Assembly (NCBI RefSeq): GCF_036321535.1
Contig: NC_087436.1
Coordinates: 63,614,001-63,678,000 of the forward strand
From: Camelus dromedarius
Taxonomy: Eukaryota
Direction of reading: 5' to 3'
Length of the DNA: 64,000 nt
Position numbers and translations under genes: made by a program. Positions 5,460-59,026 of this stretch are shown here, piece after piece; within the stretch, counting starts at the first letter, position 1; the number at the start of each line of letters is the position of its first letter. The notes below the pieces were generated by a model, which did no database searches, was not told the origin of the DNA, and was given only the letters and a program-made list of their open reading frames with translations.

Positions 5460-5755
5460 AATAGGGCTCAGTCTTTTTTGTTTTTATTTTTGTATTTTGC
5501 TCAAACTTTCTTAAATAAAAGAATATTCAGTTTATCATTTAGTTCACCATTAGGTTGGTTTTCTCCTCAGAATATCCTCTAGGAGTAAGGGGGGACAGAT
5601 GTGTGATAGATGTGTGGCTGTGCATTACTGTGAGTTTAAATAAGGGAGACTTTATCCTGGACTTTGGCCATGTGCTTCCTGCATAAGCTGGTCTGCTGGA
5701 CAGTGTCACATGTCCTTTGGTCATTGATTTTCCTGCCATTTTCTGATGCTAAAAT
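5460..5755 (-). other. Candidate terminal exon (3' UTR or C-terminal coding) of the minus-strand gene
   Basis: Strong acceptor gttcttccttttcag at 5756-5757. Contains the 66-aa ORF 5539-5739. Minus-strand AATAAA at 5483-5488. Confidence 0.45.
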
Positions 5756-7176
5756 CTGAAAAGGAAGAACTTAGAGTCTTTTTTTTTTTTTTTTTGATCC
5801 AGGAAATGTTCCTGAGGTAATCCCTTTCATAACTGTAACCTTTTTCAGATACCTAAATCTGTAACCATATCTCCTACCCAGTCTAATGGCCTAGAGATCC
5901 ACCAAGTCTGCCCACATGACACCACAGCATACCCAGTAGCTCTTAGCCCAGTTATCAGTGTCACTGATAAACGCTAACTTAGTTTGGCTCAGTGGAACTC
6001 ACTCTGAAATCCTGACTTCTGGGGCTACATCCCATATTCACACAGTGAAGCTTGAAATTTGGTTTCTTTCCAGAGTTCCAAAGAAGAGCCAGAGGTGAGT
6101 GCCCGACCATCTTTGTCCCTTACTGTTCTCCTCATTTCACTTTATATATTTTGTTTCTCCCAATCCAGAGTCAGAAAGGTGGAAACTGAGCATTTGCCTG
6201 GTTGACCCAGTTTCCTATTTGTCTTTTCTTTCTCCTTCATGGCACTCCCCAAAGGGAGAAAGGATTGAACTTTTTTTTAATTGCCCTAAACCATCTCCTC
6301 TCTCCATACTTTAGCTAAAATCTAAGAGCGTCCTAGAATGTTCCCCTACACTACTGACCACTGTGCACCTAATTCTCCAAGCTAGGTGACAACTGAGGTG
6401 CTAAATAAATGGGGGTGCAAGAAATTTGAGAAACGTTTCCTTGAAACAATGTCTAGCTTGAAATGTTATTCTTAATTGCATGATCCTTGTCTTGAATGTC
6501 AGAAGCAGAATATTACAAATTATTAGTAATAGTATTTCTCTCCACCATTCTCTCTGTTCTAAGTTCTGATCTCCTCTTATTTCCTCCCCACCCATTCCCA
6601 CAGATGGATGCCTGGGTAGCCTAATAAAAAGTCTGATACCTTTTACAGGGAAAGACAAGAGAAGTATTATGGATTTTAATGCCACTGCCAATTCTATTAA
6701 TAATTTGCATTAGATGTTAGATCAATTTACGCTTAGGAAAATGACCACAATTGCAATGCATCCTGCTATCTTTTAGATTTAAGTTCCTTCATATATATAC
6801 AGAGCTCAAAACCTTATTCAAATATATACCTACAATATCAGCCATTAAAAGTACTTTCAACATGTTCTTCTTAAGACTGAAGTTTCTCAGAATACTATTC
6901 TTGTAGAACCAACTGTTTTCAAATCTTGGTATTTTCTACTATTCCTAATTTTCAGTTTCAAAATTCATTTGATCACTTATTTTTAATAGAATACCATTTT
7001 AAATTATTAATTCTTTTTGTTTCCAGCTGCTTTATGTATAATTTTCAACTAGGATATCTAATTGCTGTTAAACTCTTTTTGATGAAATTTTGTATTGCAA
7101 TAGAGTGTCCAAAACTTGGAGATAAAGTAAAAAGATGACTGCCCATTCTTTTAATGTCATACTAGACCACTGTTCA

Positions 7177-7410
7177 TGAAGGAAAGCCAGAATATGCCAC
7201 CCCAAAAGAAGCCATTTTTAAAGGTTACTTAAACATCTTCTGCATCAAGGACACTCTGACCTTCCTCTGTCCCCCGGAAAGCAGAAAACACATCTCGTGT
7301 ATAAAAAGTACCTTCCTGTACCAGGATGGTAGAAGGCATCCTCATCACCAGAAGTAGGCAATTTAAGGCTGAGAAGACTGTTTAAAAAACAAAAACAAAC
7401 CCTTGTTATT
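7177..7410 (+). mobile_element. MER34/MER39-like ERV1 LTR fragment
   Basis: Begins tgaaggaaagccagaatatgccacccaaaa, as recalled for the MER34 group. Confidence 0.6.
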
Positions 7411-7957
7411 TCAAGGTTTTGAACTTTTAAAAAATTGTCTAAATATTTTACCTTTTTAATTTAAATTCCAAATCATTCTGTGCTGTGTTTTAAGCCTCTA
7501 TTTATACAAAATATTATTATCGTAATTAAAGTGCTATGAATCTATACTAATGAGTTCTTCTAATACATTGGCAGACAAGGTCTTTATACACCATATTAAT
7601 ATGTATGGTTTCTGCTATTCAAAATGATAATACAATACAGGAGGTGTCACGTCTTCATTTAAAAGCTAGCTGAAAATTTTTTCAGCATATTCTTTTGATA
7701 GACTCTAATATTTTAGTTACAGACTCAAAGTTGATATTCCTTTTCAAGTTTTCACTCTAATAGTGTCCTTCTAATACCATCATTCTGCCACTGTGTAAGC
7801 AGTCGTGATCAGGTGACTAACACAGATTAATTAATGCTCAAGGGAATACGGAGTTCATGATTTCCTTCCACAGGGAATATTTTTCTCAACTTGGGTTTAA
7901 GGTCTGTTTTTTGTCCGAATGGTATCTTTATAAAAGAACTGAAATAATCTCCTAAGT

Positions 7958-8185
7958 AAGAGGTCAGCACACTATGGCCTCTGAGCCAAATCTGGCCCAT
8001 CACCTGTATTTTGTCAATAAAGCATTTTTGAGGAATAGAGCCACACCCATTCATTTATGTATTTTCAAAGACAGCTTTTATACTTTTATGTGGCAATGTT
8101 GAGTAATGGCAACAGAGACCCTGTGGCTTACAAAGCTGAAAATTTTGCTACTTAGCCCTCCAGAAGAAAAGTTTGCCAACCCACA
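7958..8185 (+). mobile_element. MER58A-like hAT-Charlie element
   Basis: ggtcagcacactatggcc...gccaaatctggccc...agccacacccattcattt...aaagtttgccaaccc. Confidence 0.85.
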
Positions 8186-8572
8186 TCCTAAATTAAAGAT
8201 ACATTTTAAGTATTTAAAAGTATATCAATTCAGAAATGAAATGAGTGGCTTTGAGATATAGTAATACTTATAAGGCATTTACCGTGTGGCACTCTATTCT
8301 GAATAATTTTGGTGTATTATCTCATTAAATCATCACAATAATCTTATGAGATACAGTAAGTGATTGTAATTCACAACAAAAATTCTGACTTCAGAGTATT
8401 TGCTCTTAACCAGCAGTCTTTACTGACTCCTGCACATGATAAATTTCTCATCATTATAGATATTCAGCTGTCTTAATGAAAACTTGCCAGAGATTGTCAG
8501 AAAAGAGACTTTTAAAGTCAGTATCCATAATAAAATCTCATGACTTCATCCTATCCAGATAAACAGAGCAAT

Positions 8573-8574
<2 letters not shown>

Positions 8575-8604
<30 letters not shown>
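8575..8604 (+). repeat. poly(A) tract
   Basis: About 30 consecutive A. Confidence 0.95.
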
Positions 8605-8606
<2 letters not shown>

Positions 8607-9235
8607 TCAACTTCTTTAATTTCAAGAAAATCCACTGTTTGATAGTTTTATGACATGATAAAATTTAGTTATTTCTAAAATTAGAAGAATCTAAACATCC
8701 AAAAAGTCAAGTATTTGAGCTTTCAACCTCATGACACACACACAAAAAAAAGATCCCAGTGAAGACGTGGAACATCAAGAGCACTTTCCACATTTCCTTT
8801 GGCCTCTGATTCATTAAAGCCTTAATGAATTAATTAAAGCCATTAATTTTCCAACTTAATAGCAAATTATTATCCCCATTAAAAATTAACGTATAAACAA
8901 AGTCATTAAACAATAAAATCCAATCCATTGACACCTGACAGTTAAAAACAGATAGCTATTTTAGTAATATGGTAGATAATTCATGGTTCAGACATGTTTA
9001 AGATGCATCTATGTCTAGGAAGAAAGTCACCTTGTTCTGTTTTCCCCATCAGACGATAACAAAATCTCATGAAACAACCACCCATTCCAGTCACCATCTG
9101 CCCCAGGTACTGCAGGAGAGAGATATTAGAACCCTGGGTCCCAAGAATATTCATCCGCTCCCAAAGGAGATCTAGAATGGCAAGATAGCAGTGTCCCTCT
9201 TTCTTGGTCTCCCAGCCTTCCCTTTCTGTCCTCAC

Positions 9236-9309
9236 CTTTCTGTTTCATCCCTTGATCTCACATGAAGATCTGACTCGCTTCCTCTGGTGCTGTGGAGGGA
9301 GAATTAGAC
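9236..9309 (-). CDS. Candidate penultimate exon (74 nt)
   Basis: Acceptor ccctgtgttttcag, donor AAG|gtgagg. Phase-2 reading SNSPSTAPEEASQIFM*, with the TGA at 9258-9260, 22 nt before the donor. Confidence 0.55.
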
Positions 9310-11294
9310 CTGAAAACACAGGGTCAGGTACCAGATTCTGATTCTGAAGGATTCAGTGTGTATCCATGAGTGGCTCACTTCTCTTCACTTTCTTTCCCCT
9401 TCCTCATTAAAAACACAGTATAATAATATCGACTTTATAAGATTTGGAGAAGATAAATGCAAAAGAATATATAAAAACTCCTAGAAAAAAGCTACCTGTC
9501 TGAAACTGAATGATCAATCTTTTTTTCTAAAGCTCAGTCACCGGTGCTTTCTAATAATGAATATAATTCATTATTCCTTTCTTTCTAGTCTATTTCTCTT
9601 TTTAGTCTATGGTTTAAAATTTCTATAAATATCATTTAGGACAAATCGTGATGAGAATTAATAGTGCTGAAAAAAATACTTCACTTGCAAAGTCATTTTA
9701 TATCTAAGAAAAATAATATTTAGATTCTAATGGAGGTAATTATGTTTATAATATTTAATTTTTTCTCAGTAGATTGTGGGTGAGACGAAACTCAGCTATA
9801 TGCATATTTGCATCAAGTTTATATGTGCATAAAATTATTTTCCATTGCATCTAACAGCACTGTATAATTTTCCCAAATAATTTTATAATAGCTACTGTAA
9901 GCCATGGAGCAGAACTGTGGAATGCTGGGGAAAAAAAAACAAGACAAGCTCAAGCCTGTGTCAAAAGCAATGATATGACTCATTTTAAGAGAATGTGTAC
10001 TTCAGCAGAGGCTAGAATTGAAATGTAGCAAAATCTACAAACAATGGTAATCCAAAATCCTGCACAGCACTGGCTTCCAGTCACAATTTGGTCTTATGAG
10101 ATATATCTATCTTCAAATAATACAGGAGGGGGCATAGTGTTACCATATGATTCTTCAAAATTTTCAAAAAAATTATCAAGTTCACTTCTTCTATCCATGA
10201 GCAAGATTCAGCTATTCTGAAATGATGCTATATGATTCACTAAAGGATTAAAGGGAATGGTAGGTATGCCTTATTTTTAATATCACCCTCCTTTCATTCA
10301 TCACAAAAATAATAAATCCTGAAATAATCCAAAGGACCTTTGATTTGAAACAACTCAAAACTAATATACAATGTAGCCCCTTTCTGAAATGTAGACTTTG
10401 CTGACAGGTGGTTACTGGTGTCCCACTATTTAGACAAGGGAGTCAAGGACTTACTGGTAGTACAAATTTTATACCTTTTCAGTGCTTTATGATTACTCTA
10501 TTTTCAAAAATAAAAATATATAAATATGAACTTCTATCATCAAAGTTGTGATTTCTGACAAAGTCACATGAAGAAAAATTAGTTCTTATGAAAGTAAGCT
10601 TATGCAACATAAATGTAATCTTTTTGAGAAACTTGTAGGAGGTGCTCCTTGAAATTAAGTGTTCATACTAAGCCTAAAACAGTATCTCTGCCTAGTTAAA
10701 TGGGTTTTGCATAGCAGCAAAAGACTGTTTTACATCATTGTTAATTCAATCATATGCAGTATTTATTAATGTTTATCATTAATACTGACATTCTGCACAC
10801 ATTAATTCAGCTGTCATAGCATTGTCAGAAATCTATCAATTCTTTCATTATGATGATTTACATTCACTTTTATGATACATCCATTAAAGCATTAGACTAG
10901 TCCATAAATTAAGCTATGAATTTTATAAGTCCCATGTTCAGAAGTACCTGTTCAGCATTCCTTTAAAAATTATTTTAAACATAGTTCTAGATTACATTTC
11001 TTAGTTCCCTTCTAAGTTATATGGATCCCCAACCATCACTTTTTAAAGGGTATTTTACCTGTAGTCTAAAAGAAAGTATTCAGAATGATACATAAATAGT
11101 GCTCTGAAAGCCAGAAAATTGAAAGATTATAAAATTTACAGTTTAAAGACTTGATGATATTTTATAATAGCAGAAGCTTCCGGGCTAATTAGAGGATCCT
11201 ATAAGTAATATCATTGTATCAGAATTTTTATAAATAAGATCTTCTAGTAAGGCATATCTAGTAACTAGTTCAATTTATTTAAAGAAATCCTTAC

Positions 11295-11420
11295 TCCTTT
11301 GGCTTCTGGTTACTTTGACTTGGAGCTACAGAAGCCTCCCACTGACAGCTCAGGCCGGGACTGCTTCTGTTTGAAAGAGGAAATGTATCAGCAGCCTCAG
11401 TCCCAACAATCTTGTAGGAC
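11295..11420 (-). CDS. Candidate exon (126 nt)
   Basis: Acceptor cattaaattgtag, donor GGA|gtaagg. Open only in phase 2: SYKIVGTEAADTFPLSNRSSPGLSCQWEASVAPSQSNQKPK(E). Confidence 0.55.
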
Positions 11421-14305
11421 CTACAATTTAATGACATTTCAAGTCCTGGTATTTCAGGGCAATGATTATCAACTTCTTTATAATTCCCATCTCTGGAGCT
11501 TGCTAACCTCCTCGACTTTTGTTCCAATAGTTCAGGTTATGATGTGCCCAGGAAGAGCAAGCTGTGCCTGACATCCATACACTCCCCACTCTGCTTCCTC
11601 AGTCATGTTACCTAATACTTCTCAAAGTGAGAGTTTCAAAACACATGATTCAGAATTGTCATGTTTATTTAGTAAAACACAGCTTTCTGTGTGGTGGCTA
11701 TGCAAGAATTGTCTGCTCTATCTTCACAAATTTTCCATAAATCTAAACCTTTTCTAAAATGTAAAGTATATATTTTTAACTTAGCTCCTTAGGTGCCAAA
11801 CTACATCTACTAAATCACGATCTCTAGAGGTGGCAGAAAGTAAATTTTAACAAACACCACAGCTGATTCTGATTCACACTAGAGCCTCCACACTGTCCAG
11901 GAATAAGCTTATGCCCTCTACACCCTCTTCAGTATTGCCCAATTGGCTGTCTGATACACCTGCAACAAGAATCTGGGACCATGGAGGTTATCACTCTTTG
12001 CCCATGACTCATGTCCAATGATGTATCTATTGTGGGTAATAGCTTCCTAGGCATAGAATTACATCTTTACCTGGAAGCAAATTAGGCATGCAGACCACCT
12101 AGTGATCTCCTGGAATTAGTAACTGGCATAAACAACAAGCTTCCATCACCTTCAAACTTAAGTGCTAGACTAGAAGAAACCCTCTTTTGCCTACATCACA
12201 AAATGCCTCCTACTGTCACACCCCTGAGTTAGAATGGGAGGCCAGAAACAGACTGAGAAATGCTGTGTTGAAAAAAAAAAAAAAGTCATCACAAAATTCT
12301 AAAAAAATAAATACAGAGGTGTAGTACAAGAGGAGTTTTAATATGTTTCTTATGGCTTTCTAGAATCAAGAGAGCTCATTATTACATATTTCCTTATTTA
12401 AAATATTTCCCATTAAGTATCCACCACATATGAGTAAGTTACTAGGTACTTAACTGTAATGACTGAAATTAAATTTAATATAATTACATTCAAATTGCTG
12501 AATCCATCCATCAGCATTTGTAAAGTAATCTAAAATTGGTCACATTTTCTTTGTATGAAGGATTCCTCCTAAGAAATCCTGAAAAATTATTTTGAGAAAC
12601 TAGTATCACTATGGAGTCTTTTTGTAAATGACCTTTACTACTCTTTTTACTCACAGGAGCTCATAAAATAAAATTAACATTATTTTAAGGCACAAATCAT
12701 GCCACCTAACCCACTTTACCCTCTTATCTTTCCCTTTCAGACCATTTTCCTTACTGTTCAATTTAGAAGCAACATTCAAGTCTCTTGGTCCCCAAATGAT
12801 TACAAGGAGTTATGTTTCCAACAAACTTCTTAAATTACTTGATTTCAATCTCATCTGTTTTCATAAGACTTAAATTAAATTAATGAAGAGAAAATGTCTA
12901 TCTGAGCCTAACTACAGAAAAAGCTGAAATATTAAAACATGCTGAAGACTGATTCACATCATCCAGCACAGGGGAACCTGGGTCACACATCCTGCCCCCT
13001 GTGCTGCTCTCGTTCAGTGGGACCACACCAGAAACAACTAGTCATTGTGGAGAACTGTTTAAAAATGAATGTGCTGAAGATTTTCTGATTCACATTCATT
13101 ATCCACTGACCTGTTCTCAACGGATTTCACAAAGAGAAGCAAAACTAATTACCTCAGGCCAGGCTGTCTGGAAAATAATGGCACAGTGATTTAGAGAAAA
13201 GCATTCATGCTGTAGAGGCCTTTTGGAATAGTGTGTATTTTTAAAATTAAATATCACAGTTTTTTGATCATAAAACTTCTGCATTTGAACTAATGCACCA
13301 TCATTTCCTTTTTTAAAAAAATCAGTACTAAACAAGACTTTTAGGGGCTAAATATCAATAACATTACTCTGGTTCAATATTAAGTCATCTTAACATACTT
13401 GAAAAGAGACTCACAAAATACGTGGAGGAGGAGCTTTAGAAATGAGGAAAGAAAATAATATGATAAACCACTGAGTATTCTAGAGTAAGTTATTTATTAA
13501 TGCTATTTATTATCTCTGTTTTAATTTACCACAAAAATAAATTTGTTGTTTCTTAATAAAACATGCATAATGGACACGGAGAATGGTTTCAAATGAAGCT
13601 TGTCTTGTTACAAGGGATTACTGATCTTATTGGTATGCAGGGAGATTCTGCAAATCTCTATAGATTAGTGTAGAATAGGTAGTGGTGACAATGTAGAAAT
13701 CTGTTGTCTTGTTGGAGGTTACCAGAGCTATCAGAGTTTGGTTATTAGAAATATAATGTGAAAAGTCAATGCATTCTGGAAACACACAGAGTTCACAAGA
13801 TCTCAGAGAAAAATTGCCAAAATAAAAGGGGAGGGGAACTGTAAGACAAGTACATTCTTAGACCACAAAAGGGAGGCAAATCGAGAACACAGTGGTAGTT
13901 TAGCCAAATACTGGATAGCTCACTCCCAGAAGCCCTAATCATGGGGTCTTCTCTCTCTCTCTCACTGCTAAAGAATAATCATATGAAAATTAGTAAAGAG
14001 GACTTAGAAAAGGCCCTTTCTGTAGTGTTCCAGTTGGCTCCACTTTAGATGAAGTCTGGAAGAATTTGGAAAAGAATTATACTGTACTCAAAAGCTTAGA
14101 TCCAAAGGAAAACAAATTGGGTCATTCACAGAATATTAATGTAAATCCTCACACTGAAAGAACTGAGTTAGGTCCATGCAAGTGATTTCTCCTCCTGAGC
14201 ACTGTAAAGTCACTTTAAGTACCAAATGGCATCATCGATGTCTACACTGCTTCACCAGCGCCACTAGTGCCTGAAGAGGGCCTTGGGCTGAGAGCAGAAG
14301 CTCAC

Positions 14306-14362
14306 CTGGCTTCCTTGGGATGGGGTGACAGGGAGGACTGCTGATCGCAGTCTTCTCCTTGT
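14306..14362 (-). CDS. Candidate exon (57 nt)
   Basis: Acceptor tttgcatatgtag, donor CAG|gtgagc, GC-rich. Phase-2 reading QGEDCDQQSSLSPHPKEA(R). Confidence 0.55.
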
Positions 14363-14725
14363 CTACATATGCAAATTTTATTTTTATAGTGTACATTTGA
14401 CTGGTTGTACAGACAACATAGAAGACACAATGATAACTGTCCAAAAACAATGCAGATTTATTAAGTTGTATTTACAGTTGTATTAAGTTTGAACTTTCCA
14501 TCAAGTTAATTCTCATCATCAGTACTTTATTTATTTCTAAATACTATCATATAAGTGACTTTGTCACTTAGCAGACTACTACTCAAGATTCTGTGTAGAG
14601 CTTTCCTTGATACCCTACCACAGGATCCATACTTACGATATCTACTGCCTAATAACCTTGCCTTAATGTCTCCATGGCTAAAATTATCACACCACATTTT
14701 AAATGAGATGTGCCCTCAATATACT

Positions 14726-14764
14726 TTTTTTTTTTAACGAGTAATAGTCATTTTACAATGTTGT
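14726..14764 (-). mobile_element. Ultra-short young L1 3' end with 11-bp TSD
   Basis: poly(T) followed by the reverse complement of an acaacattgtaa..tgactat-type L1 tail, flanked by ctcaatatact at 14715-14725 and 14765-14775. Confidence 0.75.
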
Positions 14765-14899
14765 CTCAATATACTCTTTAACTAAATGCCAAACAGTTGA
14801 ATGTTAAAATCATTAAGGGAAGCCAACTAATACCATCATAGAATAAACACGGAACTTGAAGAAAAATCTGAATACGTTCCCCAAAAGGCAATTATGATT

Positions 14900-16500
14900 A
14901 TACTTTCACTGCTATAGTTGTTAAAAGCCAATTCTATTAGTTTGAAAACTTAGAAAAAACCAATTTCTCCACTCACCTCCAAATGAGGTCAGTGGGTGTG
15001 CAAATGTTTTGGGGTAATTCTTCCAGTGTAGGCTACTGTTGGTGGTAACATTGTCACTAAGTTTGATAGTTTTCCATCATCTAGGTAAAGATTCATCAGC
15101 TCTTCAATTTCTGTAATGTCACCTAATCAATCCTGCAAATTAGAGTTGTTTGCACTGCTTAAAGAAGATTCTCTATAATTTCAGAAGACTTAAAAATGTC
15201 TTCACATATTATTTTATCAGGAATATTTTTGCTCAGTTGCTGTTTTATACTTACTTGCCTGAGATAAAATTTACCTTAATCTTGGATCTAGAAATAGAGC
15301 AATGGAGAAATTTGATTGGTTGCAATATGACAAATCTCTAAATTTCCACCTGCACCTCAGCTTTCATTTCCTGCACACTAATGTGCTATGAAGCAAAATG
15401 TTGGGAAAATCCTTATAGCAGGCACAATGTAAGAAATACTTCTGCTCTCCAGTCACACCAGTTTGGTTATTTCTTTACCCAGTTCTAACAAATAAACCAT
15501 GTTCTCTACAAGCAAGCTGTCTTGAAAGCTGGCATTGTTATTGGCAGAGTGCAGTGTTAAATCTTTAATTCAATCTTTTTAAAAATGCAGTAGCTTCTAT
15601 TCCATCTTGTTTGAGCATCTGATATCTGACAAAGTAGTTCCAACATCTCTTTTATGTCATGTAGATGTTTTTGAATTAAGTAGAGTGATAACATTAGCTC
15701 ACTATTTCCCTGCCTAAGGGCAGAAATTCTGTTACATTTTGTGTTATAATTACTTTTCTAACATACAATTGAAATATGTGGGAAAAATACCCATCGTCTG
15801 CTTATTTACATGTCATTCCTAGCCTTTGCCACTTTTGGTGCATTGTCAGTCACAATTATTTGACATTTGCTTTACCGATTTTCCATTCCATAAATAGTTC
15901 ATCAGTCAGATCCACTCAGTAAAGCAGTAACTCAACATTGTAAAACTTAAAAATATGTATATATGGTTTTATCTTTATGTCTAAATGTGTGATTATAAAA
16001 GTTAGAAAAATACTAATTCAATAATATTGCTAACATTTATGTTGGTATGCACTGAAGAATGTAAGTCAAGTACTTAGTGTTTCAGTAACATGTCTTATAA
16101 ATGGAATTCTGTTACTTAGAATTAACAGCTTGAATTAAACTAAAAATTCTTTGATATTCATCCACAGAAAATGTGTGGTATTCTTTTGCAGACATTTCAG
16201 TAAGACTTTGCTCAAAATTTTTGCCTCTATAGGCTTAAAATCATCAGAAGATTACTAAATCATTTGTGAAAACTCTGTTTTGAAGTTTGGTAAATGAAAA
16301 CAACATATGGTTTTCAGTACATTATTTATCTCCAACTTTTAAAATTCTCTTCTTACCCACTATTTTTATATCATAATTAAAAACTATTTATCGTAGATAT
16401 TTGGGGTCTTTTCTTTCTCATGAAATTTTGTAGTGGCATTGTTCTCTTAAATCATTTTCTCAACTTGCACAGAATTCCCAAAAAGGAATACTAAAGTCAA
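14900..16500 (-). mobile_element. Ancient hAT (Ac-group, ZBED1/ZBED4-like) transposase fossil, near full length, multiply frameshifted
   Basis: Collinear degenerate motifs on the minus strand: BED-finger-like FWEF..END...C..KIS (~16400-16490), EMSAKEYHTFSVDE (16157-16198), IVTDNAPKVAKA (~15820-15856), YFSHIFQL (CxxH-like, 15766-15789), DAQTRWNRSY (~15590-15620), ALFLDPRL (~15277-15300), and hATC-like EELMNLYLDD...PTLEEL...PLTSFGGE (~14960-15110). Confidence 0.8.
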
Positions 16501-16679
16501 AGCCAAATTTCTATGCTTCCTGAAATATGTGTTTATGTGAATACTGTCTCCAACAAACTATGATAATCATAAGAAAAGAGACTGCATTTTATTTCTCTCG
16601 TTGTCAAGAATAGAGCATGACAGATACAAGGCACTCAATAAACACTTGTGGACTGAAAAAAAGTGTGTTTAAAATAATA

Positions 16680-17638: not shown

Positions 17639-17663
17639 TGTGTGTGTGTGTGTGTGTGTGTGT
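17639..17663 (+). repeat. (TG)n microsatellite
   Basis: About 12 TG units. Confidence 0.95.
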
Positions 17664-17689
17664 ATGCACAAACAAGTTACTTTTAATGA

Positions 17690-26400: not shown

Positions 26401-26429
26401 ATACCAAGCAATGGACTTGATATATATAC

Positions 26430-38730: not shown

Positions 38731-38774
38731 AAATTATGATGCTACATAAAGATACGGACTGGAATGCTACTCAC

Positions 38775-47800: not shown

Positions 47801-48310
47801 CCTTGATAGTATGTACCCTTGACGTGATGTAATGAAAACAGCAGTTTACTCCCTAAAACTCATAACCAAGGCCAGTCAGAAGATAAAGGTCAAATTCCAC
47901 TTGATTCTATAAAGTACCTAATTAGTACTTCTTAAAAAGTGTAAAGGTCACTCAAAACAAGGAAAGTTTGAGTAAGTGTCACAGTCAAATAGGAGCCTCA
48001 TGAGAAATGACTACTGAAGGTAATGTGATAACCCCAATGGGACAACAAGACCAAAAAGACGAAAGGGAGAAGGAAAGAGAAACAAAGAAAGAAGAAAAAT
48101 AGGTGGTAAAACTAAAGAAATCTGAGTCAATTATGAACTATAGTTAATAATTATGTATGAACATTGATTAATTGTAATGAAGTATCATATTAATATGAGA
48201 TGTTAACAATAGAGGAAACTGAGTGAGGGGCATAGGGGAATACTCTATACTTATCTTCACAATTTTTCTATATACTTAAATTCTTTTAAAATTAAAATTT
48301 TATTTTAAAA
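44850..48310 (+). mobile_element. Old L1 (L1MC/L1MD-type): 5' piece, ORF2 fragment and long 3' end
   Basis: aatggaattaaattag..atcaaaatttgtggaatgcag (ORF2); aaagaaccaaggctcctttgaaaaatggctggttctagg and gatgttaacaatagaggaaactg...tactctatac (L1MC 3' UTR). Confidence 0.8.
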
Positions 48311-48331
48311 GGATTATTAAAAGAATCTATC

Positions 48332-48745
48332 AAGGACTGATTGTATACCCCCAGTAAATTCATATGTTGAAGCCACCAAGCCCCAATGTGACTGTATTTA
48401 GAGATAGGGTCTTCATGCAGGTAATTAAGGTTAAAAGAGGTCATAAGGGTGGGACCCTAATCTGTCAGGTCTGGTATCCTTATAAGAAAAGGAAGAGACA
48501 CAAGAGATCCCCACCCCCATCTTTCTCCTTCATATGCACACAAAGAAAAGGCCATGTGAGGGCACAGTAAGGAGGAGGTCATCTGCAAGCCAGGAAGAGA
48601 GGTCTCACCAGAAATCTCACCAGAAAGCAGATCTGCCAGCTCCTTGATCTGAGACTTGTAGCCTCCAAACTCTGAGAAAATTAATTTGTGTTGTTTAAAC
48701 CACCCAGCTTGTGACATTGTTATGGCAGCCTGAGTACTCTAATAC
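48332..48745 (+). mobile_element. MLT1A/B-type MaLR LTR
   Basis: aaattcatatgttgaagcc..ccccaatgtgactgtattt..gatagggtc...ttatggcagcc...ctaataca. Confidence 0.9.
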
Positions 48746-50049
48746 ACAATCATGGACAGTGATATCAAACCAAGTACAAGGAGACTGGAAAGAGACACCA
48801 AAGTAAATTTAGAGGACTTGAAGAAATACCCATTAAAGGTAAATATACTCTGAGATCTTAAGGATATGCTATTTGAGGAACAAATGAACAAAAGATGGAA
48901 TGCATGTGCCTCTTGCAGGGGGACAATGAACAATGAGCAAGCTCAGTATTCAGAGATAAAGAATTATGCTTAAGCAGCAATTGGAACTATAATTTGCCCA
49001 CAACCTAATATTTGCTGTATGCTTTTGGCATTGCATAGTACTAAAGGTTGTATTTGAAATATAGCTTAATTCAAACAAGATATTTTATTACTTTTAAATA
49101 TGTAGTGGTGATTGAAGTTAGTAGTAGAGTTATTAACCTTGGTAATCTACTTAATTTGGGGATCAAATAATTACCCCACTTGTGATTTAACTATTTCTTC
49201 AAAGTAGGAAATATTACCATATGCTTATACCTTTGGATAAGCCTCCTCTTCCTCCTGACATTTTGGTCTGAATTATTAGTCTTAAAATAGAATATAAAGT
49301 AAGTATAGTCTCCCTACCACTATGTATTTTATTCACATTTCTCATTTATGAGATGTTACACCCTAACTAGAGCAATAGCCAGAACTGTAAATTTATACTA
49401 AATTAACATCTCAGCTTTGCTGGGTGCAAATTCAAATAATGGTGCTTGCAGGTATAGTGCCTGTCCTTATTCTCATTAAACATTAAGTATATGACCTCCT
49501 TTTTTGACTTAATTCAACAGAATCATTGAAGTAATTTTCCATTTTACTTTAGAGAATGGATTTCACAAGGATTCCACTCTGGAATCAACGTTATTTGGAG
49601 GGCTTAAAAATTGGAGCTTTAATTACATTTCTTTTCAAAGAATAATGAAATTACATAAAAAGTTTATTTGACTAGGAACAATAGAAAGCTATTAACTCAT
49701 TGGACTCTGCTCACTAAAGACATGATTGTTAATAACCTTCATTAAATATCAGAGCATTCTTTTATTAACTATAATAGCTAATAATTGATGCTTGGAGCTC
49801 TAAAATTATTCATAAAAATGTACAATTCTGAAAAAGTAGATGACAATTCATTATTTTATGTGTTAGATGATGCTTTCCTGAACTGGAACATCAGTTCTTT
49901 GTTGGCAGGGATCTTTGTTTTATTCACTACTGTATCCCCACACTAGAAAAGCACTCACATATAAAGGCAATCAATTAACATTTGTTTAATGAATGAATAC
50001 ATCCACTATGATTTTCGCAAGAAGTATGAACTTGAATATTAATATTTTT

Positions 50050-50745
50050 CATCTGAACATTTTACCAAGAAGGGCATACAAATGGCCAACAAGTACGTGA
50101 AAAGATGTTGAACATCACTAATCATTAGGGAAATGTAAATCTAAACCACAATGAGATATCACCTCACACCTGTTATGATGGCTATTCCTGAAAAGGTAAG
50201 AAATAACAAGTGCTGGCAAGGATGTGGAGAAAAGGAAATATTTGTATACTGCTGGTGGGGATATACATTGTTGCAGTCAATCTGGAAAACAACCTGAAGG
50301 TTTTTCAAAGAACTAAAAATAGAACTAGCATATGGTCCAGCAATTCCACTTCCGACTATTTATCTGAAAAAAACAAAAACACTAACTGAAAAAGATATCC
50401 ACATCTCCACATTCACTGTAGTATTATTTACAATAGCCAAGATTTGGAACCAGGTAACCTAAGTGTCCAGTGATGGATGAATGGATAAGGAAAACATGGT
50501 ATATATTCAATGGAATGTTATTTAGCCAAAAAAGGAAGGAAATGCTACCATTTTCGACAACATAGATGGACCTTAAGGGCTTTATTATAAGTGAAGTAAG
50601 TGAGACAGAAAAAAAGGCGAACACCACGTGATCTGACATATTATGTAGAAGCTAAATAAATGAGCTCATACAAACGGAGAGCAGATTGGTGGTCACCAGA
50701 AGCAAAGGGTAGGAATTGGGTGAAATACATTAAGGTGGTGTAACT
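50050..50745 (+). mobile_element. L1MA/MB-type ORF2 end and 3' UTR
   Basis: aaatggccaacaagtacgtgaaaagatg...accacaatgagatatcacctcacacc...gcaattccacttc. Confidence 0.9.
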
Positions 50746-51084
50746 TTTTTTAAATTGTCTTTTTCTCCTTTAATAATACTACAGAACTTATGATCCTAGT
50801 AGAACCTATGTGAAATGTCTCCTGACAAGGTTTGAAAATGAAATTTTATAACACAGATAACATAGATCCACATTGTTACATGGCTACTAAAAACAACAAA
50901 ATTATAGGCTGAATCAAAAACAAGGTTAAACACAGAGCAGAATATATTTCAGTAGTCTTATTATAGTCTTTGATAATCATTTATAAACTGGGAACTGCTT
51001 TTCTAAGGAATATAGAAGCAAAGGTAGGCAAACAGTACAGTGAGCAGTCTAGAATTTCTACCATAAGCAAGATTTAGCTGTACT

Positions 51085-51350
51085 TAACTTGATGAAGGAT
51101 TGTCATGTGGAAGGGAATATGACTTACTCTTTGTTGCTCTGGAGGGTATAATTTATTTTGGAGGCAGTTTTGAAATCAATATAAGGAATATTTAACAGCT
51201 CTAGCATTGGATTTATAGAGTACCCACCAGTGGAGGGAGACTCCCTAGTACTGGATATATTCAAGAGATGTTTGACAGAGATGCTTGACAGTCAGAGACT
51301 TGAATAAATATTCATGAAGACCGTTTATAGCCCTGAAAGTCCACGAGACT
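51085..51350 (+). mobile_element. L3/CR1 3' fragment
   Basis: tgaaggattgtcatgtggaag...ggaggcagtttt...aatataaggaa...ctccctagtactggatatattcaag. Confidence 0.65.
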
Positions 51351-52139
51351 GTTTCTTTCCATTTATTTACAGCAACAATCTATTTTGCTCCTCTAGAGTC
51401 AGAAAAGTATTAAACTTGGTATGAGATGTCTTTAGTTGGAGTACTGATTCTGCATACTAATTGAGAAATTGTATTATTATATGTGGACATGTTAATACAT
51501 TCTCAGAGAACAGTGAGTCATGATTAAATAAGATATATAAATTCTACAATATAATATATATACTAAACCATTTATTGAGAACCTATACACAATTTTCACT
51601 TATTTCCCAAATATTAATTTAGTAGGGCTCTTTCTTACTAGGCAAAAAACTGGTCTCAAAAGATGCAGAAGTGAACTCATACAGAACAGTCTTCATAGAT
51701 CTAACAGATTATCTGTGTCCCTCATCATGTAGTTATTCGAATACACAGTATATAGGAAATGAAAGTTCAGATCATGTAATAACTTGCTAAGAACTACACA
51801 TCTGGTGGCACAGCCACATTAGAACCAGGACTGTGCATTTTCAAAGTCCCTCTAAGTAATTTCTTTGATCAAAAAAATCCAAAGTTATTCACGTACTTTT
51901 TCATTTTTATTTTCATATAAATTATTTGTCATATTAATTATCACTACCTGTTTAAAAGATAGTGAATTTTGTCTTCTTGGGAATTAATTTTTTTCAGTAC
52001 TAATATTAGTCTTTTTAGGTAGTTAATATTTAGGTGAAAATGTTTTAAGAGCTCTTCAGTCCTATCATTGTGTTTAGACACATGATTATCAATATTCATG
52101 AAGCAATGGAGATTTCTAAGTCAGTCATAAACTCACACC

Positions 52140-52620
52140 AGATTTTGAATTATCTGCATTTTTAATGGGGGAAAACAAGGAGATTGTAACCAGTTAATTG
52201 AATAGACTAAACTCAGTAGGGTATAGTCAGAAAACAGTTTTTTTAAAAATACAGAAATATAATACACATATAGAAAGATAATTGTTTCATATGAGTACAA
52301 CTCAGTTTTTACAAACTGTAAAGGACTATATAAAAACCACGAGTGAAAAACCCTAACATTACTAGCACCCAAGAAGCACCCCTCAGGCTCCCTTCCAGTC
52401 ACAATACCCCTGCTCCTAAGGATAACTACAATTCTTACTTACAGCAACATAGATTCGCTTTGACTAGTTTTGTATATTATAAGGTAAAATTAGTCCCTGA
52501 TAACTAATGAACATGTTTTCATGTATTAATTGGCCATTTGTATAATTTTATTGTCCAGTGAATATTCAGTTTTTTTGTCCATTTTCCTATTGTATTTTCA
52601 ACATGTCGATTCTCAGGATT
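52140..52620 (-). mobile_element. L1ME-type 3' fragment
   Basis: aacattactagcacccaagaagc..ccttccagtca...tattaattggccatttgtata. Confidence 0.65.
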
Positions 52621-53454
52621 TTTGATCTTGGATATCTTAATACATAGTATTTGAAATCCACTAAACAAATTCTACAAGACCAGCAATATTCATTTTTTTT
52701 TCTGTTTCTTTAATACTGTATTCTCAGTTCCTAGACTAATGATGTTAGTGAAATTTCAGTAAATGTTTAATTAATATAAAAAACTTAATCATATTCAATA
52801 ACATGGAAACAGAGGTGTGTAACAAGCTAGGATTTATACGAAGGAATCTCAAAGCTTTAGTCCTTTTAATAGTTGGCTTTTATTTAAGTCAATTGATTAT
52901 CCAGGTGATAGAACAGGTTTGTGGTACATGTATTATTTGTTATCTATCCACATAGAAAACCTCTAGGGCTCCATTTACATTTCCCATCATGAAGCCTTAC
53001 TCTACAATTTTCTTCCTCTTTAGAAAATCTCTTTGTCTTCATCTTGTATGTAATTGTCATATTCAATCACAGTATTAATCTCAACAGTATTCTCCCTCCA
53101 GCTTTAACTGTCTTTTTGGTATAAGAGGTAGGAAAGAAAAGGAGGTAAGAAAGAAAACACAGCTTCTTTCATTTTGACACATCAGAGGAAGCTAGAAATT
53201 CAATTTCCTAATTCTCAGTTCAGTTTTCTCTCTATTACAAACATAATACCAGAGAGTGAACTTTAGCTACTATATCTACAGAAGGTTCTAACATTCATAG
53301 TCACAAAGCAACATGGGTACAGTCTTCCTCAAATTCAGAATGTGCAGACAAAAGGGAATAAGGTAGGGGGAAACAAAACAGTTGTGAAGAATGTATTTGG
53401 GTGGGGATTTGATTTATAAACCTTCAATTTAGTTTATACTTGAACTCTACACAC

Positions 53455-53529
53455 CCAGTTTGTATGGTATTGTCCCTTGAAGTTGCTAGGGTGTTTGACT
53501 CAAAAAGACTCAAACCGAACAGAGGGCTG
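53455..53529 (-). CDS. Candidate exon (75 nt) of the minus-strand gene
   Basis: Long pyrimidine-rich acceptor ctattttcttattcttaatcag and donor TGG|gtgtgt. Open in the phase-2 frame: SPLFGLSLFESNTLATSRDNTIQT(G). Confidence 0.5.
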
Positions 53530-54804
53530 CTGATTAAGAATAAGAAAATAGATGTGGTAATAAATAAAGGCAATGCCTGGTTAAAAGATGATCATTGGGG
53601 ATTCATATGCACAACTCTACATAAAAATATCCAGAGATCATATATAATCAAGACAATACCTTTTGAAGTACCTCATTAATAAATTAGAAACTAGGCCTTC
53701 CCCTGCAAACTTTTCCATCTGATAGTAAAATTAGAAATACTAAATCATCAAACCTCATTGAATATTACTATAAGGATGCTGCACTGAATTAGACTGAAAT
53801 CATAGAGAATGCTGAATTGTATCCAAATATTACTTGCATTACTCACATAAATATTACAAAATAAAATGACACACTAAGAATAGAGGTATTTTCATAAAAG
53901 GAAATCCTTTTAAGTTGATAGTTGGTGCCATCATTACTTTTTTTGTTGACTACAGTGTGAGTTGAAAGCAGAGATATAATAGAAAACCAGGGAGATGACT
54001 GGTAATAGCAGGCTCTTAATTCCTTCTCCCATCCCAACTGCTATAAAGAATGGTCAATAATAAACATCAGGATAGAAGGCTTCTTTGTAACACTCATTTT
54101 TAAAATGTGTATTTTTAAATGTAAAAGTATGAAAGTGATAGGACCAATGCTCTATCATAGTATTTTTTCTAACTTTTATCTTATCTGTTAGCTTGAAAAA
54201 TAAAAGCCTTCTCAAAAAAGATGTTTTTCTTATTTTTAATTAACAAAATACTAATTTGAAAACATTTTAATGCTTACTTGAGTAAATCCCCTACAAGTCA
54301 GTCATTTGCTGAAGCAGAATTGTGTAACCTGGTCACATTTTAGGGTATTCATTGTATTGACAATAAAAGATAATATGGTTTCTGAATATCACATCAATGT
54401 GTAGGAAAAACATTATCAAATTCATTATTGTTATCATTCAAGATTCACCGTAAAATAAACCAGCAAATGAAAAACAACAAAAGTCCCCTTATGTACTATA
54501 CAGTCAAGAATATGAATTAATGGTTTTTAGATCAGGAAGGAAAGAAAAATGAAAAAGCGCATGAAATCTATCAGCTACCAATAATGAATCCCATTTTGAC
54601 TTCACTCTTACATTTCTGATGTTATAATCTGCCATGATTTGTTAATATAAATTACATATTTATAATCTAAATTATAACTATCTAAACTTGGTAGGTTTCA
54701 TGTGCAAGTACTCTTTCATTAATTACAAGTTATATTATTTTTGTTAATAGTGTTGCATAAACCAACTTGAATTAAAACAAGAGTCAATATAAGAAATATG
54801 CAAA

Positions 54805-55387
54805 TGACATCTTTATCCAGTCATCTGTCAATGGACATTTAGGCTGTTTTCTTGTTTTAGCTATCGTAAATAATGCTGCTATATACTTGTTTTAGCTATC
54901 GTAAATAATGCTGCTATATACAATGGAATACTACTCAGCCATAAAGAATAATAAAATAATGCCATTTGCAGCATCATGGATGGACTGGAAATCATTATTC
55001 TAAGTGAAGTAAGCCAGAAAGAGAAAGAAAAATAATGTATGATATCATTTATATGTGGAATCTGAAAAAAAAAAAAGACAAATGAACTTATTTACAAAAC
55101 AAAAACACACTCACAGACACAGAAAACAAACTATGGTTACCAGGGAGGGAAGAGAGTGGGAAAGGATAAATTGGGAGTTTGGGATTTGCAGATAATAACT
55201 ACTATATATAAAATAGATAAACAAGCTATACTGTATAGCACAGGAAACTATATTCAATTTCTTGTAGTAACCCATAATGAAGAATATGCAAATGAGTATA
55301 TGTATGTATATCTATGACTGAACTATTATGCTGCACACCAGAAACTGACACAACATTGTAAACTGGATATACTTCAATTACAAAAAG
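54805..55387 (+). mobile_element. Young L1 3' end with 5' inversion (twin priming) and TSD
   Basis: 54807-54885 is minus-strand L1 and ~54915-55385 is plus-strand L1 3' UTR. TSD agaaatatgc(a/g)aa at 54792-54804 and 55388-55400. Confidence 0.85.
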
Positions 55388-55437
55388 AGAAATATGCGAA
55401 CAGATTCACTATGCATCAGCAGCAACTTGTCAAAAGC

Positions 55438-55920
55438 GTGACGGGAAAGATCATTATGATTGATCTTATGTATTGACTCTCTCTCAATTCTATAGACACT
55501 CACAAACTAAAAACTACATTTCCTAGTCTACTTTGAAGCTAAGGTTCTGGAGGCAAAATTGATTTCACTAATTAACTGCATTCCTACCAGATTTAGAAGA
55601 CAGGAATCAAGCACAAGCCCTTTTCCAGGTGTTCCTTCTGATTGTAAGCAGTATCATTGTGACATGAGTACTGAGAGAGAATTTTAGTGGCCATACTCTG
55701 TGTCTAGTGGCCAAATCTTTACAGTTTCGTTGCAGACAAAAGTAGCAACAGTTTCTTGATGTCTGGGTGGCAGGCATGGGAGTGTTCTTGAAATCAGGTG
55801 TCCCCCTGATTCTCACTCCTCTAGCCCTTCTAATCACATTCTAAGCACTTAATTTTCTGTATAAAATTCCTAATAAGTGAAATATCTAAAGGGCCATATT
55901 CTTTCTGTACTATATACTTA
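55438..55920. mobile_element. ERVL-class LTR (LTR33/LTR16-like)
   Basis: aaactacatttcctagtc..tttgaagctaagg...cccttctaat..ttctgtataaaattcc. Confidence 0.55.
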
Positions 55921-55924
55921 CTGA

Positions 55925-57260
55925 GAGGAAAGAAAATTATGTTGGATATTAACAAGAAAACTAAATACATACATCTATTTTTTATATGGATGTAAAGATA
56001 CTATAGAAGATATAAATAAATGGAGATATCTTTCCTGAAACACTGTGTGTATGAAAATTTTTCTAAACTGACATATGCTATTCAAGAAATACCAAGTACA
56101 AAGGGAATTTTTATGGAACTTTAAAAATATGGTTCTAAAGTTCACCTTTAAATATAAATGGTTAAAAATAGATAGAAAATATTTTTAAAAGTGATATAGA
56201 CATTAAGATATATCTCTAGATATTAACACAGCATACTAGAGAAAAATCTGTAAATAGGTTCAAAAAGCCAGAATCAATGGCAGAAAAAATTTTATTAGAT
56301 CTAAGTAATTATACAATAAAGAAATCATCACAATCAGTGAAGAAAATATAAGTTAAGCAACAAATGATTTTGTGAAAAATAGAAATAAAAAAGCACAAGT
56401 TATGCCTTACATCATAATTCAAATTTAGTTCCAGTTTGTTTAACTAAACTTAGAACTCAATTATCATATACACTAAAGGATTTGTCGAGGGTCTATTTAA
56501 ACATTATGTAAATGATTTAAGGATGGGCATGGGCTTTTTTGAACAAACATCAACTGCAACAAATGACAAAGAAAAGTAAAGTTTGTCACTAGGCAAATGT
56601 AGATTTTTTTGCCAACAACCTCTTATATCAGATTGAAGACAAAACATTGAGAGAAATATTGGCAGTAAACATGAGAGACAAAAGGTTAATTATGCAGAGA
56701 ATACAAAGTGAGTAAGAAAGCATGTCACTGTAAAACTGAGAAAAACTTCAAAAGACAATTTTCTTATCTTCAGTAATAAACTATGAAATGAATTTAAGAC
56801 AAAATAATCTTCACATTTTAAAAATGAGCTTCTGGAAATTTTTATTATTAAATAGAGCTGCAGATAAATGATTTAAGAAAGAACATTGCAGTATTGTTTA
56901 AAATGATGAAAATTAGAAATGATTTAAATTTCGACACTAGGGGAACTTTATGCTATATCTAAGAATGATGGGGGGGCATTAAGACCTTATATTCTTATAA
57001 TAAAAAGAGAAAAATGCTCAAAACATTGGTGTACATGATAAAAATAAGCATTTAATATTTTAATAAAGAAATCAGTCATTTAAAGGGAGTTATTTATTAA
57101 ATAAATAAATATCTATCTAAATATACTTCCTGGAAGTAAATATACCAGAATATCAGCTGATTGCAGCGTTAGAAGTGATTTTTATTTACTTTATACTTTT
57201 CTATTTATTTTCTGTAATAGCATATATTAATTGCATCACCCAACAAAATAAATAATATTT
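55925..57260 (+). mobile_element. Old L1ME-type ORF2/3' fragment
   Basis: agaagatataaataaatggagat...ttctaaagttcac...ccttacatcata; A-rich and degenerate. Confidence 0.65.
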
Positions 57261-57835
57261 GAGTACAGGTGACAGATTTAACCTACACTAACTTAAGAAG
57301 GAAAAGTGTTGGCTTGTGAAATAGAATTTTCCTTCCAGTGTGAACTTCTAAAGCAGGCTTGATCCTGGGACACAATGTTGGCAAACCCTAATCCTCAAAT
57401 TTCTCAGCTCTACTTCAACTGTGTTAGCTCCATTCTCAGGCTGACTCTTACAGCTAATTTACCAGCATTTTTGTCTAATTTGTTCACTTCTGCATCCCAA
57501 GTGCGTGAGCTAGGCACATGGTAGGTGTTGGTTAATATTTTGTTAAGTAAATAATTAAGTTAATGGATAAGTTAATGAGGGATGGTTATAGTAATGCCAG
57601 CTTTTCATTCTTCCAGCTTCAATTCAGCAGAAAACAGTTTGTCCATCTGTGTCAGTACCCCTAGTCCAAATCTTATGAATTCCCTTAGACCATCTTTGAA
57701 TCAAACAATGTGATTCTCCATCCAGATATGTGCATAGCACAAACTCAAAAGATAATAACCTACTTCAATCAAGGATGGAGGAATGAGTGGTACCCCAGAT
57801 GGAAACTGAAGTATCATTATCAAGAGAATATGGTA

Positions 57836-58466
57836 TTTCTCTAATAATTAGCAATATTGAACACTTTTTTAATGTGCTTATTGGCCACTTGTATGTCTTA
57901 ATTGGAGAATTGCAAGTCTAGGTCTTCTGCCCAATTTTGGATTGGGTTGTATGTTTTTCATTAAGTTGTATGACCTGTTTATATAGTCTGGAAATTAAGC
58001 CCTTGTCAGTCTCATCTTTTGTAAACATTTTCTCCCATACTGTAGGTTGTCTTTTTGTTTTGCTTATGGTTTCCTTTGCTGTGCAAAAGCTTGTAAGTTT
58101 AATTAGGTCCCATTTATTTATTTTCACTTTTATTTCTATTTCTTGCTAAGATTTAGGTCAGATAATGTTTTGCCTATGTTTTCTTCTAGGAGATTTATAG
58201 TGTCTTTAAGTCTTTAAGCCATTTTGAGTTTATTACTGTATAGCACAGAGAACTATATTCAATATCTTGTACTAACTTATGGTGAAAAAGAATATGAAAA
58301 CACATATATGTATATTCATGTATGACTGAAGCATTATGCTATACACCAGGAATTGATACAACACTGTAAACTGACCATACTTCAATTAAAAAATATGCAT
58401 ACATAAATGAAAAAAATACAATTTCACAGATACTAATAAATTATAAATAGTAACAGGCAAAAAAAA
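57836..58466. mobile_element. Young L1 with 5' inversion and candidate 3' transduction, inserted into an MLT1 LTR
   Basis: 57836-58232 is minus-strand L1 ORF2 ([23 protein letters not shown]) and 58235-58393 is a plus-strand L1 tail, followed by ~65 bp with AATAAA (58435-58440) and A8. Confidence 0.8.
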
Positions 58467-58972
58467 TGTATGTGGTATAGTTGTTAGGAAGTCAAAAGAT
58501 GGCAGTCACTACTGTATATCTTCATAAATAGAAATATCCATCCATAAGCACAAGCTTAATATTTAAGTCATGCCTATGAAGCAATACCTACACTTCCCTC
58601 AGTTAATAAGGGAAGACTTAAGAAACATCCCATAAAATCATTCAGGGTTAATGCTTTGCAAAATGCTTTGGGATTGGTTGATTGAGCCAAGAGACTCCAA
58701 GTTTGCAGTTGGCTGCTCAAAATGAAATCAATAAAAGCTTTTCTTGGTAGAGGGGATCACACAGGATAGGGTGTAAGTCTGAAGCAAACTAAAAACGTGA
58801 TGACCTGTTAAGACATATTGGTTACCTTTTATTAAAAAGTAAAAACAAACCACAAGAATGGATGATCTCACTCACTAAAGACCTTTCCATTACACTTTTA
58901 CCTTCAGTGTTCTTCAGTGAATTGGTAAAATGCTTTTTGAACTGGTTTCAAGGCACAAATCCATTGACTTAC

Positions 58973-59026
58973 TCAGAGGCTCGGCTATCGATACACAGAC
59001 TCCAGGATGTCTGGCACACCAATCAC
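58973..59026 (-). pseudogene. Candidate exon (54 nt) of the minus-strand gene
   Basis: Strong donor TGA|gtaagt, weak acceptor (ctgcctggag), two CpGs. Phase-2 reading *LVCQTSWSLCIDSRAS(D); phase-0 reading VIGVPDILESVYR*PSL*. Confidence 0.4.

Follow-up and report, generated by a model that had tools for sequence, protein, structure and literature searches.

Introduction

Divergent (head-to-head) lncRNAs start at CpG-island promoters, those of genes with developmental or neural roles. ADGRL3 is a synaptic adhesion receptor linked to ADHD, and two human lincRNAs, LINC02271 and LINC02496, presumably lie a few hundred kb upstream of it at 4q13.1. Megabase 'split-N' domains occur in gene deserts. 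In transcribed regions, according to the available part of PMC10030826, the non-template strand carries an excess of G+T, and L1 and LTRs show a template-strand preference; the same part reports a leading-strand preference of L1. Skew jumps at replication origins are described in the available part of PMC3320577. We examined a 64-kb stretch of DNA (the window, meaning the whole stretch analysed), in which an original prediction had placed a hidden multi-exon gene on the minus strand.

The locus and its candidate exons

The window is part of a gene desert and is separated by 350-410 kb from the presumed ADGRL3 CpG island, to which it is upstream. A latrophilin-family last exon was found at C1:64.75 Mb (+), a steroid-dehydrogenase match at C1:66.18 Mb (-) and an Eph ligand-binding exon at C1:66.97 Mb (-); this order in the camel matches that of human 4q13, which we take to be ADGRL3-TECRL-EPHA5. 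The island, located at C1:64.025-64.028 Mb (window-relative 411-414 kb), is the sole strong one in the 864 kb examined and would be the ADGRL3 promoter. A consensus minus-strand donor, TAG/GTGAGT, stands at window-relative 411169 and points from the island toward the window. The sequence suggests a minus-strand transcription unit of ~405-430 kb, running from the island to near the last exon of the original prediction; recursive-type AG/GT sites numbered zero on the minus strand within this putative unit.

Coordinates for five segments had been given in the original prediction, and those for 59026-58973, 53529-53455, 39679-39623, 9309-9236 and 5755-~5460 were deduced. The features are as follows.

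58973..59026, minus strand: candidate exon, unproven; 54 nt; good GTAAGT donor, poor acceptor; single copy; coordinates deduced
53455..53529, minus strand: candidate exon; 75 nt; phase-2 frame open (missed in the original prediction), one stop in phase 0; single copy; coordinates deduced
39623..39679, minus strand: candidate exon; 57 nt; good splice sites; two stops in the phase-2 frame; coordinates deduced
38826..38939, minus strand: candidate exon; 114 nt; GC 50%; 5 CpG; single copy
27385..27465, minus strand: candidate exon; 81 nt; contains the ATG that comes first in the phase-2 splice, in weak context and opening an ORF of 96 codons; single copy
14306..14362, minus strand: candidate exon; 57 nt; very strong donor, poor acceptor; single copy
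11295..11420, minus strand: candidate exon; 126 nt; sharp GC contrast, poor acceptor
9236..9309, minus strand: best candidate exon; 74 nt; strong acceptor and donor; single copy
5460..5755, minus strand: candidate last exon; strong acceptor; AATAAA at 5488 inside an A-rich run; single copy
1..64000, minus strand: 3' part of the putative long transcription unit, its 5' end lying beyond the window at the CpG island C1:64.025-64.028 Mb

In most cases the segments are GC-richer than their flanks, and some retain CpGs. A recent-repeat origin was ruled out, all of them being single-copy in the genome; they could still derive from very old repeats. Segment 38826..38939 is the window's only unmasked CpG-rich spot, and control sequence holds ~4.5 such spots per 64 kb. 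For segment 11295..11420, a better acceptor was noted at 11366, giving a 72 nt exon, and repeats near this segment are confined to ~11775-11706. An old repeat was seen at 39890-39748; if it were an LTR, it might have driven a first exon with its end at 39623. The candidate last exon lies close to where the skew and LINE-1 domain described below ends on the left. Its AATAAA at 5488 is weak evidence, since each kb of the minus strand holds ~1.2 copies of the motif; the strand asymmetry of AATAAA (473 vs 622) is largely a consequence of skew.

Splice sites, reading frame and chance

The segments had been described as having canonical splice sites. This holds in part: AG precedes all five named segments and GT follows four of them, the fifth ending at a stop (9258) and not at a GT, with a donor instead after 9236. 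A 165-nt segment had also been listed; the sole candidate found for it, 38990-38826, lacks an AG acceptor. The acceptors of 59026, 14362 and 11420 ranked below the median AG site.

When the five segments were spliced in phase 2, 142 codons and a stop were obtained exactly as quoted, while the other two frames contained 7 and 6 stops. Such a shared open frame has P ~0.006 under blind choice, a value that does not hold here because the segments were not chosen blind. With 53529-53455 included, all six segments are phase-2-open (blind chance 0.0018). Segment 39623..39679, having two phase-2 stops, breaks the protein model. Using similar thresholds, at least five symmetric, phase-2-open pseudo-exons were found in 15 of 20 block-strands of 64 kb, or 14 of 19 when the window's own minus strand was left out. 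Selection thus reproduces in control blocks both the multiple-of-3 pattern and the open frame that had been taken as signs of a gene. Choosing segments by hand would be enough to yield the proposed hidden protein.

A combined splice and composition score was also applied; the splice-site weights in these analyses were untrained. Seven of the eight internal segments were matched by ~11-63 background candidates per 64 kb per strand; the only rarer one was 9309-9236 (3.5-5 per 64 kb per strand). Under two scorings minus-strand candidates were over-represented in the window (20 vs 2-11 and 26 vs 5-24), and in a third, over 864 kb, this excess was gone.

Coding potential, homologues and RNA

The codon score of the phase-2 chain was not significant (P=0.13; the training set of 2,861 codons was small and GC-biased). 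Its first ATG is at codon 47, in a weak context, leaving an ORF of 96 codons. Upstream phase-0 peptides are present as proposed, at 59026, 53499 and 39679. The idea that phase 0 is more protein-like there found agreement in a mildly positive codon score for the three upstream segments (8.5 bits, best-of-three P=0.10) and none in the stops, which occur at a random rate (3 in 62 codons vs 3.0 expected; 10 in 229 vs 10.5 expected). Hence these 229 codons show no stop deficit in the old frame, nor a CGA-to-TGA excess, as signs of a unitary pseudogene. The phase-0 TGA stops had been attributed to CGA decay; TGA accounts for 6 of the 10 stops, its background share being 0.43, and is not enriched.

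Homologues were sought with single exons of 37-55 residues (23-62 aa for Pfam). HMMER against 1.84 billion representatives gave no match for 38828-38938, and word searches of the protein collection gave none for 11297-11419, 38826-38990 or 53431-53550. Pfam yielded no match above cut-off in 7 frames and 27 read-through frames, three matches below it having E of 0.05-0.16. One phase-0 query had no match in PDB; of two Atlas queries, one returned a bacterial match at 0.79 and the other nothing. Metagenome contigs gave 591 pattern matches with 0 confirmed, and Rfam gave 0 matches. The predicted phase-2 protein was absent from the collections searched, even as a product encoded by the window itself.

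When the stretch 5300-14500 was compared with RNA runs, four runs held 41-68% of its words and four more stood at 0.05-0.06, the lowest share listed. The contigs of the top four total 780-939 million letters, about one-third of the genome, so that genomic or intronic sequence could explain these shares, which are not evidence of a transcript. This 9-kb query is also poorly suited to detecting a spliced RNA of small size.

Base skew and LINE-1 orientation

The unmasked TA+GC skew of the plus strand was negative in all ten 40-kb bins of window-relative 1-400 kb. The mean was -0.052+/-0.006 there; left of this range it was -0.014+/-0.008, and beyond the island, on the right, it was +0.128. An unsupervised change point fell at -6 kb (window-relative), with bootstrap intervals of -130 to +122 kb (90%) and -38 to +18 kb (50%). 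By BIC a step (541.9) fitted better than a line (546.6), a constant (548.4) or a ramp (549.5), by a modest margin, and block permutation of the step gave P=0.0135. The slope inside the domain was nearly zero, giving a plateau with a step. With TA skew alone or GC skew alone, the step was not favoured.

ORF2-bearing LINE-1 loci numbered 18 on the plus and 2 on the minus strand inside the unit, i.e., mostly antisense to it, and 9 and 12 to its left. Removal of the six query loci left 14:2 inside vs 9:10 outside (binomial P=0.004, Fisher P=0.03). A split placed between -20 and -10 kb separated the orientations best. The bias was weaker with DNA matches added (26:8 inside vs 13:15 outside). One LTR-like family was oriented 6:1 one way inside, the query included, vs 3:4 outside; we take the prevailing direction inside to be antisense. 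The SINE control gave only 3:2. The skew and LINE-1 signals are not fully independent, because unmasked old L1 pieces can add to TA skew. Of the hidden minus-strand gene, these regional signals support a transcription unit; its coding readings are unsupported.

Discussion

With a probability of about 0.5, we place the candidate segments in the 3' part of a divergent lncRNA running backwards from the ADGRL3 promoter, some of them being true exons. The ADGRL3 CpG-island promoter would fire both ways, and the backward polymerase would meet the consensus 5' splice site at the island edge, where U1 binding would protect the transcript from early polyadenylation. Some 405-430 kb of gene desert would thus be transcribed on the minus strand, and the RNA would be spliced at a few small exons and end near the window's left end, either where the AATAAA lies (5488) or within ~25 kb beyond it. 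Germ-line expression of this multi-exon lncRNA would have lasted long enough for the bases to become skewed and for same-strand LINE-1 insertions to be purged. Some segments of the original prediction, with 9309-9236, 5755-5460 and 14362-14306 as the best candidates, are probably its 3' exons, and others are probably chance picks. Any function would most likely lie in the act of transcription, in cis on ADGRL3 or on the chromatin of the desert, and not in a protein. Against the lncRNA stand the seven of eight internal segments that are not outliers, and a skew and LINE-1 bias whose direction would be the same if replication started at the island.

This last observation leads to the possible, though doubtful, reading that there is no gene: chance pseudo-exons would lie in an untranscribed desert, and left-moving forks from an origin at the CpG island would have produced the skew and LINE-1 bias. 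Pseudo-exons of equal quality are indeed common (14 of 19 control block-strands), and neither a coding signal nor a homologue was found. The effect of replication on L1 strand is presumably mild, however, and the 9:1 bias would exceed it, albeit with just 20 loci. The skew forms a plateau with a step and not a gradient, ramp and line fitting worse, and the skew and LINE-1 boundaries both fall within ~25 kb of a last exon picked blind to them. That the skew sign flips at the island, as at replication origins (available part of PMC3320577), and that L1 has a replication-strand preference (available part of PMC10030826) nevertheless favour the reading by forks.

A fossil protein-coding gene in phase 0 (a unitary pseudogene), perhaps still transcribed as a lncRNA, would account for segments that are single-copy, mostly GC-richer than their flanks and in some cases CpG-bearing, and for the mildly positive upstream codon score. 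We consider it unlikely, as the stops are at random rate without TGA enrichment, phase 0 requires the 165-nt version that lacks an AG, no Pfam match above cut-off appeared in the 27 read-through frames, and the phase-0 queries (two in the protein collection, one in PDB) went unmatched; moreover, the 30 of 37 chr4 rows covered in the PMC5577775 supplement hold no lost-gene/lncRNA pair for this part of human chr4. Quite improbable, in our view, is an intact, unannotated young or fast-evolving gene whose six phase-2 exons (53529, 38939, 27465, 14362, 11420, 9309) would encode a Ser/Pro-rich protein of 96 aa, counted from the first ATG, or more if translation starts upstream. The sixth segment, outside the five-segment splice, is open in the same frame, and the phase-2 stop lies 22 nt upstream of the 9236..9309 donor; a stop this close to the last junction allows escape from nonsense-mediated decay, as this mRNA would. 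The open frame is explained by selection, however, the codon score and the late, weak first ATG offer it little, the good-looking segment 39679-39623 is closed in its frame, and the collections searched hold no such protein, including any encoded by the window. A combination, in which the ~400-kb transcript from the ADGRL3 promoter gained the six-exon open frame in the camelid line and so a de novo Ser/Pro-rich micro-protein of ~96 aa, is very improbable.

The case for a protein-coding discovery at this locus is weak; the control makes plain that exon chains of this kind are easily assembled by eye. If the divergent lncRNA is real, ADGRL3 gains a very long head-to-head partner transcript and a candidate cis-regulator in its upstream desert, and a single genome would be enough to trace an unannotated germ-line transcript through base skew and LINE-1 orientation.

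The literature searched contained nothing describing such an ADGRL3-upstream transcript, neither LINC name, and no paper on split-N domains in gene deserts; the rows searched in the supplements of PMC5577775, PMC10195156 and PMC12467276 included no relevant one. Like the borders of replication N-domains (available part of PMC3320577), the locus shows a change of skew sign at a CpG island, negative on the left; unlike N-domains, where skew declines linearly, it fits a step better than a line or ramp. It resembles the lncRNAs derived from protein-coding fossils (Hezroni et al. 2017, available part of PMC5577775) in being putatively multi-exon, single-copy, intergenic and exon-like in GC, and differs from them in its random stops, in that no syntenic coding ancestor was found, and in its absence from the 30 of 37 chr4 rows covered. 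In position alone, it may be likened to LINC02271 and LINC02496, which presumably lie in the same desert upstream of ADGRL3. The putative transcript would resemble divergent lncRNAs in starting at a CpG island that also serves a coding gene on the opposite strand, in having a strong 5' splice site at its head, and in small exons that show no coding signal; its putative length of ~405-430 kb would be unusual among them, and here it is a prediction from sequence.

Candidate exons and coding potential

The original prediction had proposed a multi-exon gene on the minus strand. Its five named segments (38939–38826, 27465–27385, 14362–14306, 11420–11295 and 9309–9258) were found at these positions, each preceded by AG; four are followed by GT, and the fifth terminates at its own stop codon. 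Spliced in phase 2, they gave 142 codons and a stop, and the other frames carried 7 and 6 stops. The unnamed segments were placed by us from the peptides and lengths quoted in the prediction, and are listed here with a candidate terminal exon:

59026–58973, minus strand: candidate exon
53529–53455, minus strand: candidate exon, open also in the phase-2 frame
39679–39623, minus strand: candidate exon, open in phase 0
9309–9236, minus strand: candidate exon
5755–~5460, minus strand: candidate terminal exon, AATAAA at 5488

Canonical splice sites were claimed for nine segments; the sole candidate for the 165-nt one (38990–38826) lacks the AG. Three acceptors scored under the median AG site. Every segment was single-copy in a search of the 2.3-Gb genome. 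A CTCF-like full site (core and upstream motif of the CTCF consensus) was seen on the minus strand at 39775–39812, within an old low-copy repeat (39890–39748); it was the sole match to the strict core pattern in 664 kb. LTR-like old repeats at 48385–48750 and 31300–31790 provide strong minus-strand splice sites (48582–48515, 31825–31571) and could be exonised.

Under a codon model trained on 2,861 codons from exons of the same genome, the phase-2 chain scored −0.056 bits/codon, and open controls of matched GC content scored −0.156 ± 0.091 (P = 0.13). The mean for real exons was 0.37, but the test is weak because AT-rich real exons reach values as low as −0.29. The first ATG is codon 47, in a weak context, and 96 codons remain. 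In phase 0, preferred in the prediction for the upstream exons, stops occurred at 3 in 62 codons (expected 3.0) and 10 in 229 (expected 10.5). Of the 10 stops, 6 were TGA (background share, 0.43), which gives no sign of the proposed CGA decay. The two frames cannot be joined, because 39679–39623 is closed in phase 2. Single-exon queries gave no protein homologue by HMMER among 1.84 billion proteins or by word searches, no Pfam domain, no PDB structure and nothing in Atlas and metagenome contigs, and no RNA family matched in Rfam; distant relatives would escape, because the queries were short. The claim of a protein was unsupported.

Had the segments been chosen blind, the open frame shared by five would have P ~0.006, and P = 0.0018 with 53529–53455 added; the actual picking, however, was not blind. 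At comparable thresholds, at least five symmetric, phase-2-open pseudo-exons occurred in 15 of 20 block-strands (one strand of one 64-kb block), 14 of the 19 controls being among these. A combined score was then applied to 864 kb. For 7 of the 8 internal segments, each background strand held ~11–63 equally good candidates per 64 kb, and only 9309–9236 stood out (3.5–5); such pseudo-exon scores are crude, because the splice weights were set rather than trained. A minus-strand surplus of candidates in the window (20 versus 2–11 in one scoring, 26 versus 5–24 in another) was gone under the combined score over 864 kb. Among the segments, 9309–9236 and the terminal 5755–~5460 are the best candidates for true exons.

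Genomic setting and regional signals

On the same chromosome (C1), a latrophilin last exon lies at 64.75 Mb (+), followed by a match to steroid dehydrogenase (66.18 Mb, −) and, at 66.97 Mb (−), by an exon for Eph ligand binding, an order that we take to be ADGRL3-TECRL-EPHA5 of human 4q13. The sole strong CpG island in 864 kb, at 64.025–64.028 Mb (411–414 kb from the window start), would be the ADGRL3 promoter. This would place the segments in an AT-rich desert, on the strand opposite to ADGRL3 and 350–410 kb upstream of it. A CpG-rich intronless stretch was seen at 63.8587–63.8593 Mb (window-relative 244.7–245.3 kb); judged by its reverse frame, it may be a cystatin-B/stefin retrocopy.

TA+GC skew was measured on the plus strand of repeat-masked DNA in 40-kb bins. 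It was negative in all 10 bins from window start to island (mean −0.052 ± 0.006), near zero to the left (−0.014 ± 0.008) and +0.128 right of the island. The best change point, located without using exons, was at −6 kb, with a wide bootstrap 90% interval (−130 to +122 kb). By BIC a step fitted best (541.9; line 546.6, constant 548.4, ramp 549.5; permutation P = 0.0135); it was absent for TA or GC skew alone.

LINE-1 loci with ORF2 numbered 18 on plus and 2 on minus within this domain, versus 9 and 12 to its left (14:2 versus 9:10 with six query loci removed, when the best split fell between −20 and −10 kb; 26:8 versus 13:15 including DNA matches). Excess of G+T on the non-template strand, and L1 and LTRs on the template strand, are known marks of transcription (PMC10030826).

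One of the two minus-strand ORF2 loci lies at 54811–58422; its piece near 54915–55397 is readable in both orientations, resembling an inverted 5′ end. Just outside the domain edge, at −20365 to −13770 (C1:63.594–63.600 Mb), is a long minus-strand LINE-1, at whose poly(A) signal any read-through could naturally end.

At the island, a consensus donor, TAG|GTGAGT, points leftward at 411169. On the minus strand here (window-relative 411100–411230) a long pyrimidine run ends in the motif, so that the site could serve as acceptor and donor; another acceptor-like AG follows ~50 nt on.

Discussion

From these regional signals, which are observed, we infer transcription and splicing of a leftward RNA, its tissue and its function. 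The island would act as a two-way promoter, an early splice donor would stabilise the leftward polymerase, and transcription would span ~405–430 kb, terminating near the window's left end, with a few small exons spliced into the RNA. We give this divergent-transcript model a probability of about 0.5. Such an RNA would probably not encode a protein, and any function would lie in the act of transcription, in cis.

If the island holds an origin, replication could instead make the skew (PMC3320577) and L1 bias (PMC10030826) with the same signs, and all segments could then be chance. The plateau shape of the skew, and the position of both boundaries within ~25 kb of the last predicted exon, speak modestly against this reading, which we consider possible but rather unlikely. 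A fossil gene is improbable: no stop deficit was found, nor any homologue in the single-exon searches, and the locus is absent among the 30 of 37 chr4 rows examined in the PMC5577775 supplement. An intact young micro-protein gene gains from the sixth open exon (53529–53455) and from the phase-2 stop lying 22 nt upstream of the last junction, and is still quite improbable.

Concerning the divergent transcript, a literature search by titles and abstract openings gave nothing relevant on a divergent or upstream lncRNA of ADGRL3; annotation databases may already list it. The human lincRNAs LINC02271 and LINC02496 presumably lie in the same desert; neither name was met in the literature searched. 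The locus would work like known divergent lncRNAs and is a probable, though unproven, new member of this common class.
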